A DNA stretch of 64,000 nt from sequence record MN850574.1; one strand, given 5' to 3'. Numbering within the stretch: the first letter of the stretch is position 1; each line of letters begins with the position of its first letter. Below are positions 22,184 to 23,016 of the stretch, piece by piece. This DNA comes from Escherichia phage kaaroe. The position numbers and the translations under genes are program-made. The notes beneath the pieces are model-generated. The model did not search any database, was not told the DNA's origin, and worked only from the letters and a program-made list of their open reading frames with translations.

Positions 22184-22378
22184 ATGCAAGTTTATACCAA
22201 TAGTAATAAAGGACAAGATATTACGCCCGGAAAGATGTATGTTTTTACCCCGGCACGAGACGACGAACATCCACCGACTATCGGGTATATTGAAGATGAT
22301 GTGGGGTTTCGTATTACGATCCTTCTTGATGGTGGATGTTCTCATCTTCGCGGTGATAAATGGGAGTTAGTACCATGA
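22184..22378 (+). CDS. small protein, GCSHL-motif paralog 1
   Basis: 64 aa; motif LDGGCSHLRGDKWELV shared with two downstream ORFs. Confidence 0.5.
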   Translation: MQVYTNSNKGQDITPGKMYVFTPARDDEHPPTIGYIEDDVGFRITILLDGGCSHLRGDKWELVP

Positions 22379-22620
22379 TGTATGTGATGACACCTTATAG
22401 TAACCGCAAGTATATTACACCAAATACACTGTATGAATATACACCACATGAAAGATTTGCGAATAGTGGTTATATCCGTGATGATAAGGGACACCAGATT
22501 TTTATTTGTCTTAAAAATTGTGCACACTTAGACGGTCGAACATGGACACTGATCGAAGAACCAAAACAACCTGAGAATAAAGGTCTTTGGAACGCAATTA
22601 AAAAAATCTTGAAAAAGTAG
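22375..22620 (+). CDS. small protein, GCSHL-motif paralog 2
   Basis: ATG overlapping upstream stop; motif LKNCAHLDGRTWTLI. Confidence 0.5.
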   Translation: MMYVMTPYSNRKYITPNTLYEYTPHERFANSGYIRDDKGHQIFICLKNCAHLDGRTWTLIEEPKQPENKGLWNAIKKILKK

Positions 22621-22649
22621 TTGACACAACAAAACGGGGGTAGTAATAT
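22621..22649 (+). promoter_or_regulatory. early promoter with embedded inverted repeat (PeSL-like)
   Basis: TTGACA 22621-22626, -10 TAATAT 22644-22649, IR GGGGGTAGTAATATACCCCC. Confidence 0.65.
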
Positions 22650-22680
22650 ACCCCCATCGAAACAACAAAGGAGTATTAAA

Positions 22681-23016
22681 ATGAGTGTTAAAGAAGTGTT
22701 TGTTTATACCGACTATGACGGGTGCTCCTATCTCACTGCTGGAAAACTTTACCGTTGTGAGATTATTCATGGTACGCTAGGTCGAATTATGTGCGATCCT
22801 ATTACAAAATTGTGGAAAAATAATCCTAGTGAGCGAGAAACTCTTATTAACCTAGATCCAGACGGTTGTTCACATTTGGACTATAGAAAATGGCATATCG
22901 TGACACATGATGCTTATGGTATTCATCTTGCTACTAAAGAATTAACTATTGACAAGTTCAAGTTTAAAGAAATCCCGTTTGTATACTGGATTCGCAATTT
23001 GTTTAAGAAAGGATAA
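22681..23016 (+). CDS. protein with duplicated GCSHL-type motif (111 aa), paralog 3
   Basis: DYDGCSYLTAGKLYRCEI and DPDGCSHLDYRKWHIV; ATG at 22681 behind promoter (track ORF begins 22621). Confidence 0.55.
   Translation: MSVKEVFVYTDYDGCSYLTAGKLYRCEIIHGTLGRIMCDPITKLWKNNPSERETLINLDPDGCSHLDYRKWHIVTHDAYGIHLATKELTIDKFKFKEIPFVYWIRNLFKKG

Follow-up and report, generated by a model that had tools for sequence, protein, structure and literature searches.

Three tandem genes of a small phage protein family with a predicted SH3-like fold, between nrdC.11 and regB of Escherichia phage kaaroe

In Escherichia phage kaaroe (sequence record MN850574.1), three adjacent small genes, here called A, B and C, occupy positions 22184-23016 of the analysed stretch of 64,000 nucleotides (hereafter the window, read on one strand, 5' to 3') and encode a common GC(S/A)HL...W motif. 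Such a run raises the question of whether the genes are tandem copies of one domain, how they came to lie side by side and what their products might do. The original prediction, made from the sequence of the window, took them for the outcome of repeated duplication of a domain of roughly 50 amino acids (aa), with overlapping start and stop codons and a PeSL-like promoter ahead of the third gene. Here, we find that the three genes are related and that each carries a single copy of a somewhat larger domain, predicted to be a small SH3-like barrel. The finding of tandem paralogues is sound but fairly ordinary, and the family to which they belong is already catalogued and uncharacterised. Our best overall explanation, which combines single-domain SH3-like early genes, the history set out below and a binding-module function for the proteins, has in our estimate an even chance of being right as a whole.

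Three related genes with one domain each

The three open reading frames (ORFs) and their motifs lie where the original prediction had placed them:

22184-22378, + strand: gene A, 64 aa, isoelectric point (pI) 4.8; a single predicted SH3-like domain and nothing else, with ...LDGGCSHLRGDKWELVP
22375-22620, + strand: gene B, 81 aa; domain in residues 1-61, then a basic amphipathic tail, ...GLWNAIKKILKK; motif ...LKNCAHLDGRTWTLIE...
22681-23016, + strand: gene C, 111 aa; one domain in residues 3-76, with a long insertion between strands

The CSHL...W stretch is found at 22337-22363 in gene A and at 22867-22893 in gene C. Gene C also carries DYDGCSYLTAGKLY close to its N-terminus, the N-terminal family motif DGCSYLTAGKLY at about 22717-22752 and DPDGCSHLDYRKWHIV as residues 59-74, and it ends in a 35-aa basic tail with a predicted terminal helix, ...IPFVYWIRNLFKKG.

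BLASTP aligns A with B at 40% identity over 63 aa (E = 9e-12) and A with C at 33% identity over 67 aa (E = 1e-4), and joins B to C in two short segments only (E = 0.002 and 0.009). Two PHROG models tie the set together: phrog_6261 matches A (9e-28), C (2e-37) and B (6e-6), end to end in A and C, and phrog_15978 matches B end to end (7e-61) as well as A (1e-6). Translated in all six frames, the window contains the pattern C[SA][HY]L.{3,5}W three times, always in A, B or C (mean of 0.13 over 100 shuffles), and a hidden Markov model (HMM) of the three proteins detects no fourth copy in the same translation. Formal alignment had been named beforehand as the point on which the claim of paralogy might fail; the similarity proves significant (BLASTP, 9e-12 to 2e-3), and these E-values and the common PHROG models make the three neighbouring genes a homologous tandem set. 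Comparison of their sequences thus confirms A, B and C as real relatives with one domain copy each.

The gene at 22681 had been credited with two copies of the domain, and this part of the prediction does not stand. PHROG 6261 (73 positions) and the family HMM both span residues 3-76 of C as one domain, and a profile-profile comparison of the N-terminal with the C-terminal half of the family (hhalign) yields an insignificant probability of 0.4-0.6%; on these grounds a second domain copy in C was rejected. In alignment, DGCSYLTAGKLY of C falls on NKGQDITPGKMY of A, and YTDYDGCSYLTAGKLY of C stands opposite YTNSNKGQDITPGKMY of A. The N-terminal DGCSYL of C fits the N-terminal loop motif of the family, DGCxY(I/L)TxGKxY; 57 of the 162 domains (35%) in the family alignment have its Cys. 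C thus simply shows the first loop of the family in its commoner form. The repeat unit, put at about 50 aa by the prediction, is in fact about 60-65 aa long and corresponds to the whole small beta-barrel.

Structure prediction had been proposed as a check on the repeat. The AlphaFold2 model of A has a mean predicted local distance difference test score (pLDDT) of 86.7, and in that of C, built from 104 aligned sequences, most of the domain scores 92-96 and the C-terminal tail 54-64. The elements are predicted in the order strand, long loop, three strands, 3-10 helix (CxHL) and a last strand with the invariant Trp, which is SH3 topology. The models argue with good confidence that the domain of about 60 aa is a five-stranded antiparallel SH3-like barrel with a 3-10 turn before strand 5; known small beta-barrels of this SH3-like type are eukaryotic SH3, KOW, the integrase C-terminal domain and bacterial SH3b.

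The family consensus reads xVKTDYDGCxY(I/L)TxGKxYEV...GYIxDDxGxxIxIxLxxCAHLxGxxWEVVE, with near-invariant residues at Y13, T15, G17, K18, Y20, I37, D39, D40, G42, C53, H55, L56 and W61. Genes A and B retain essentially all of the signature, and C retains TxGKxY, CxHL and the Trp and has lost DDxG, at the site of its long insertion. The domain is usually acidic (median pI 4.9). The Cys of CxH is present in 91% of domains and the His in 94%, with both in 85%.

Searches against described families returned little. Pfam gives no match for A and C and a noise-level match only for B. Across 104 family members, no Pfam family, those of the SH3 clan included, scores above its gathering threshold, with single matches at E≥0.04 to MSSS, SH3_19 and DUF7244; faint matches to DUF6501 occur in seven of the 104, the best at E = 0.0017. 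NCBIfam, PADLOC and the PDB sequences yield no significant match to the family, and a BFVD fold search finds uncharacterised proteins only. Matches of gene C to FosA (E at or above 0.004, far under the cut-offs) were judged to be noise. By contrast, 95 and 89 of the 104 members match PHROG 6261 and 15978, respectively. PHROG splits the family in two and describes neither function, fold nor domain; the linkage, the SH3-like fold and the CxHL...W signature were worked out here. PHROG 6261 and 15978 can hence be defined as one family, hundreds of members strong, whose SH3-like fold is predicted with confidence and whose signature is sharp; it has no model in Pfam or NCBIfam.

The PeSL cassette and the history of the locus

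The locus is a hyperplastic stretch of Krischvirus, the RB49-like T4-type coliphages (myoviruses), and runs from nrdC.11 to regB. Over 21400-23500 the DNA shares 99.5% identity with Escherichia phage vB_EcoM_G5211 and 98.3% with RB49, and the interval matches 58 phage records, every one of them Krischvirus. A, B and C stand in tandem with all three ORFs intact in each of the 58, the amino-acid identity of C lying at 94-99%. They are the orthologues of RB49 ORF097c, ORF096c and ORF095c, respectively, all 'hypothetical' in RB49. In Krischvirus the three diverged copies thus lie in one deletable block. Two conserved flanking genes, both outside the paralogue set, and a cassette between B and C complete the locus:

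21464-22162, + strand: nrdC.11, RlaP-family nucleotidyltransferase (Pfam RlaP, 1.2e-14), so named in RB49, Phi1 and JSE; upstream flank
22621-22673, + strand: PeSL cassette, with -35 TTGACA at 22621-22626, a 17-nucleotide spacer, -10 TAATAT at 22644-22649 and Shine-Dalgarno GGAG at 22670-22673
23021-23443, + strand: regB endoribonuclease (Pfam REGB_T4, 1e-48), named in RB49 and GEC-3S; downstream flank

Gene A has a Shine-Dalgarno sequence, AGGAG, 8-12 nucleotides 5' of its ATG, within 22170-22176. The overlap of start and stop codons, predicted for the whole run, is found between A and B, where the start of B overlaps the stop of A in an ATGA at 22375-22378, but not between B and C, which are 60 nucleotides apart. 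C stops 4 nucleotides before the ATG of regB, so that one transcript from the PeSL presumably covers both genes. The start of B is annotated inconsistently, RB49 using an ATG equivalent to 22360 (86 aa) and GEC-3S that at 22375 (81 aa); in a divergent Krischvirus-like contig (L006), B keeps only the second Met (22378, MYVM...), with a one-base overlap with the stop of A. The ribosome-binding sites of A and C (both AGGAG; 22670-22673 for C) contain GGAG, the cleavage motif of RegB according to the annotation of regB, and B has GGGAG; the early messages of the three genes may be shut off by RegB.

The promoter ahead of the third gene is borne out. TTGACA and TAATAT are separated by 17 nucleotides, and a hairpin, GGGGGUA/UACCCCC at 22636-22655 (7-bp stem, -15.3 kcal/mol, z -2.6), overlaps the -10; GEC-3S annotates a promoter at the equivalent of this site. 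A stem-loop that overlaps the -10 is one of the five sub-classes in the definition of PeSLs by Arbiol et al. 2010 (PMC2839356), who demonstrated promoter and terminator activity for other PeSLs. Set beside the PeSLs of RB49 and phi1 (PMC2839356; Comeau et al. 2014, PMC4122927), the B-C spacer shows no difference and contains all the parts listed there: an upstream stop codon within an AT-rich stretch, a sigma-70 -35 and -10, a polyG/polyC stem-loop, a Shine-Dalgarno sequence and a downstream ORFan. By its sequence, it appears to be an ordinary, textbook PeSL. In the window the composite pattern is found twice, with none expected. The second occurrence, at 14761-14794 (cassette at about 14733-14822), shares 83% column identity with the first over an alignment of 115 columns, a likeness that covers the stop context, the -35, the GGGGG/CCCC hairpin and the Shine-Dalgarno sequence, and it precedes a 52-aa hydrophobic ORF (14820-14978). 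Near-identical PeSLs, such as this pair 8 kb apart, have been proposed as the substrates of PeSL-mediated shuffling and of the formation of mini-circles.

Three sets of related contigs bear on the history of the locus. L006 retains the order nrdC.11, A, B, PeSL, C, regB. Protein identity to the window is 90-92% in the flanks and falls to 75% in A, 57% in B and 44% in C, where the tail is nearly unchanged and the barrel heavily rewritten. Between L006 and the window, A has a ratio of nonsynonymous to synonymous substitution rates (dN/dS) of 0.26 and B one of 0.30, compared with 0.07-0.12 in the flanks, and the dN of A and B is 3-10 times that of nrdC.11, regB and vs.1. Contigs L017 and L018, from an uncultured and distant T4-like phage whose regB and RlaP are 48% and 45% identical to those of the window, carry RlaP, a single A-type gene (64 aa, at 1854-2048 in L017, 56% identical), a stem-loop and regB, and in L017 the start of the A orthologue overlaps the stop of RlaP. 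L017 additionally encodes a diverged family member of 78 aa upstream of RlaP (607-843), and its RlaP/nrdC.11 homologue is 335 aa long, compared with 232 aa in the window, with only the first 128 residues or so aligning by BLASTP. An ENA metagenome scaffold, L009, has an 83-aa hybrid at 45-296 that is A-like over its first 36 or so residues and B-like over the rest, followed by C and regB; the 44 nucleotides 5' of the hybrid differ from the 3' end of nrdC.11 in the window. The hybrid looks, from its sequence, like a deletion through unequal recombination between tandem paralogues, and such a natural A/B hybrid implies that the tandem copies still recombine. The T4 genes vs.3, vs.4 and vs.5, which occupy the same position, were considered as family members and rejected as unrelated helical proteins.

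Repeated duplication, as put forward in the original prediction, accounts for part of the run. In BLAST comparisons within the family, A and B fall in one subgroup, yet for each of them several outside members outscore the A-B match. Gene C scores up to 46 bits with outside members, compared with 23 with A and 21 with B, and a domain of 60 aa gives no robust tree. As C scores higher with outside members than with A or B, it is either an old duplicate or a separate acquisition. A history that fits would begin with a single ancestral A-type copy between an RlaP-type nucleotidyltransferase and regB, an arrangement kept in L017 and L018. B would have arisen from the A lineage by local duplication, and C would be either a much older duplicate or a family member imported with the PeSL cassette. 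Weaker second family copies also adjoin the members in phage Bas11 and in L017; duplication is a habit of the family. The locus thereby offers a clean case of copy-number change (one, two as a hybrid, three) at a fixed genomic position. T4-type hyperplastic regions are known to contain small, fast-evolving ORFans shuffled by PeSL cassettes, and nothing here overturns that.

Spread of the family among phages

The domain was also looked for in other phages, as the original prediction had advised, and a tblastn search with the consensus finds it in 147 phage records from at least four unrelated lineages. Krischvirus genomes have it in up to three places (three in most listed records, two in JSE), and the other lineages are the Drexlerviridae Tempevirinae, including Bas11, the Pseudomonas Flaumdravirus and Vibrio myoviruses of about 135 kb. 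In every phage examined, the family member belongs to a run of small hypothetical genes. An HMMER search, run exhaustively over 1.84 billion representatives, returns 334 metagenomic cluster representatives at E≤1e-3, nearly all of them stand-alone proteins of 58-70 aa; a few fibronectin-repeat proteins among the matches, which align over an LTAGTLYTFTL segment only, were judged, on the sequence of P0019, to be false positives. A second, word-indexed protein search gives seven matches. Genome contigs scanned with P0015 yield no match, and two of three scans of viral contigs are empty.

Some metagenomic proteins (P0023, P0026 and P0032) hold 2-4 domains per chain. In P0077, P0153, P0157 and P0095 (and P0164) the domain is fused to a C-terminal module, TWGEMTxAEKGALLLAxHEGKxIE...YRIKPEP, that has no Pfam match, and in P0107 it is fused to a sub-threshold Tad2-like segment (E = 8e-4). 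The member of Bas11 (JohannLBurckhardt), bas11_0078 (2495-2689 of contig L003), has Ser in place of the Cys, in RSIHIGGKDW. The next gene, bas11_0079 (L003 2686-3123), matches the N-terminal half of the domain weakly and partially (E = 2e-4), and similarly weak partial matches are seen in T1 ST68 and ST58. The recurring TxGKxYxV...DDxG hints at a wider superfamily.

Literature searches with the ORF names, the PHROG identifiers and the Bas11 locus tag found no mention of the family; the five-genome paper and the two PeSL papers (PMC2839356 and PMC4122927) are silent on A, B and C, and the latter two do not mention regB, nrdC.11 or paralogues either.

Candidate functions and neighbouring genes

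Our best guess for the function of A, B and C, and the weakest step of the overall explanation, is that they are early-expressed, non-enzymatic protein-binding accessory modules. This reading draws on their small size, the acidic SH3-like barrel, the lack of a match to any catalytic family and the early sigma-70 promoter, as well as on residence in accessory regions of unrelated phages, evolution faster than that of neighbouring genes and the habit of duplication. A, B and C are genuine early genes that look expressed: A and B are translationally coupled and read from upstream, and C lies behind the PeSL terminator/promoter cassette. The proteins would be made early and attach to host or phage proteins as accessories of host takeover or counter-defence, and the paralogues would have diverged in target or localisation, B and C having added a basic amphipathic C-terminal helix. 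These basic tails suggest, we infer, an extra contact with a membrane or a partner.

Several observations weigh against such a role. In a pure scaffold one would not normally expect a Cys and a His so nearly invariant (91% and 94%), and the pair could indicate metal binding or chemistry. The function rests on no characterised homologue, all related records being annotated as 'hypothetical'. At the larger distance of L017 and L018, A is conserved like its neighbours (56% compared with 45-48%), which fits a housekeeping role at least as well as an arms race. Lastly, the conserved place beside RlaP and regB could reflect a tie to RNA processing in particular, and not host binding of a generic kind.

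This last point leads to the proposal that A, B and C act with their neighbours in RNA metabolism, for example as regulators, chaperones or inhibitors of the toxic RegB or of nrdC.11, which we regard as unlikely. The order RlaP, family member, regB is retained in three tiers, namely Krischvirus, L006 and L017/L018 (the last with flanks 45-48% identical), the family gene in L017 begins within the stop of RlaP, C lies 4 nucleotides from regB behind a common PeSL promoter, and the Shine-Dalgarno sequences of A and C contain the annotated RegB cleavage motif, GGAG. However, neither regB nor RlaP is found near most members (those of Bas11, Klebsiella Tempevirinae, KIL3 and Vibrio phage helene), T4 has regB but the unrelated helical vs.3-vs.5 at the position of the locus, and an acidic domain argues against direct RNA binding. 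Improbable in our view is a small zinc- or metal-binding or thiol-dependent protein built on the conserved CxH (about a third of members, C among them, have a further Cys near the N-terminus), in which, for example, two CxH motifs would hold one metal ion between the partners of a homo- or heterodimer of paralogues. The frequencies of the Cys (91%), the His (94%), the two together (85%) and the N-terminal Cys (35% of domains) speak for it, whereas a domain by itself has no more than two or three candidate ligands, the N-terminal Cys co-varies with no other Cys or His column, some members have Ser for the Cys or Tyr for the His (namely bas11_0078 and the L006 orthologue of C), and no metal-binding or peptidase family is matched.

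A lysis role finds its precedent in DUF7244, a stand-alone SH3 protein proposed for the lysis module of T1-like phages (Drexlerviridae; PMC13164509). It is likewise a stand-alone SH3-like protein of phages of Gram-negative hosts and variably present, and by analogy A, B and C could be cell-wall-binding helpers of the SH3b type. The predicted fold would suit this, and genes connected with lysis lie within a few kb, with an M15 endolysin upstream, rI downstream and, just after regB, vs.1, which is SLT-like and putatively secreted. We nevertheless think it very unlikely: inspection by eye reveals no signal peptide in A, B or C, the domain is acidic, C has an early sigma-70 promoter, and no lysis gene can be recognised in the run of small unannotated genes that holds the Bas11 member. 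DUF7244 is also another sequence family, matched faintly by one of the 104 members (E = 0.06) with no other SH3-family match at E<0.04, and it sits by holin and endolysin genes, whereas the family of A, B and C is found in early or accessory runs. That the similarity is real and the genes are nonetheless decaying, functionless duplicates is effectively refuted. Evolution between the window and L006 is indeed several times faster than in the neighbours, but the ORFs are intact in 58 of 58 Krischvirus genomes with C 94-99% identical, dN/dS is 0.26-0.30, the orthologue of A is 56% identical where regB is only 48%, and the family-wide residues are retained.

Among known systems, one that comes close is Gp54 of Bas11 (PDB 9AXB; Zhang et al. 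2024, PMC11578894), which is small and non-essential and sets off the CapRel(SJ46) defence. Tested against Gp54 and PDB 9AXB, the family shows no sequence homology to it. The identification of bas11_0078 as Gp54 was considered and rejected, as that protein matches nothing in the PDB and does not have the G24 and W43 reported as mutated in Gp54. Because small stand-alone barrels such as Gp54 have recently been found as defence triggers, the family provides reasonable candidates for anti-defence or trigger screens. A bolder version, which we consider quite unlikely, would make the CxHL-W barrel an undescribed and widespread class of phage effectors, in which Cys and His form a shared metal site or reactive centre and the tandem paralogues, like the multi-domain proteins of metagenomes, assemble into hetero-oligomers that inhibit a host or defence target or control RegB or RlaP. 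If it were true, the RlaP-barrel-regB arrangement in T4-like phages would mark an undescribed functional module.

Gene C itself is labelled 'putative endoribonuclease' or 'RegB' in MK327932 (G2248), MT478991 (011D4) and MK962753 (JK32). We rejected this label: C has no Pfam REGB_T4 match at E≤1, and the name looks like annotation spill-over from the adjacent regB.

Upstream of nrdC.11, a vs.6 homologue at 20961-21377 carries a glycyl-radical domain (Pfam Gly_radical, 1.5e-16; compare the spare-part protein GrcA), and T4 vs.6 bears the same annotation (glycyl radical, GrcA-like). Directly after regB lies a vs.1 homologue (23530-24120), whose N-terminus, MLKVLKAIVLSLSLAVGATHA, resembles a signal peptide by eye; its homologues in related contigs have a weak SLT (lytic transglycosylase) match, and it may be a secreted peptidoglycan-active protein.

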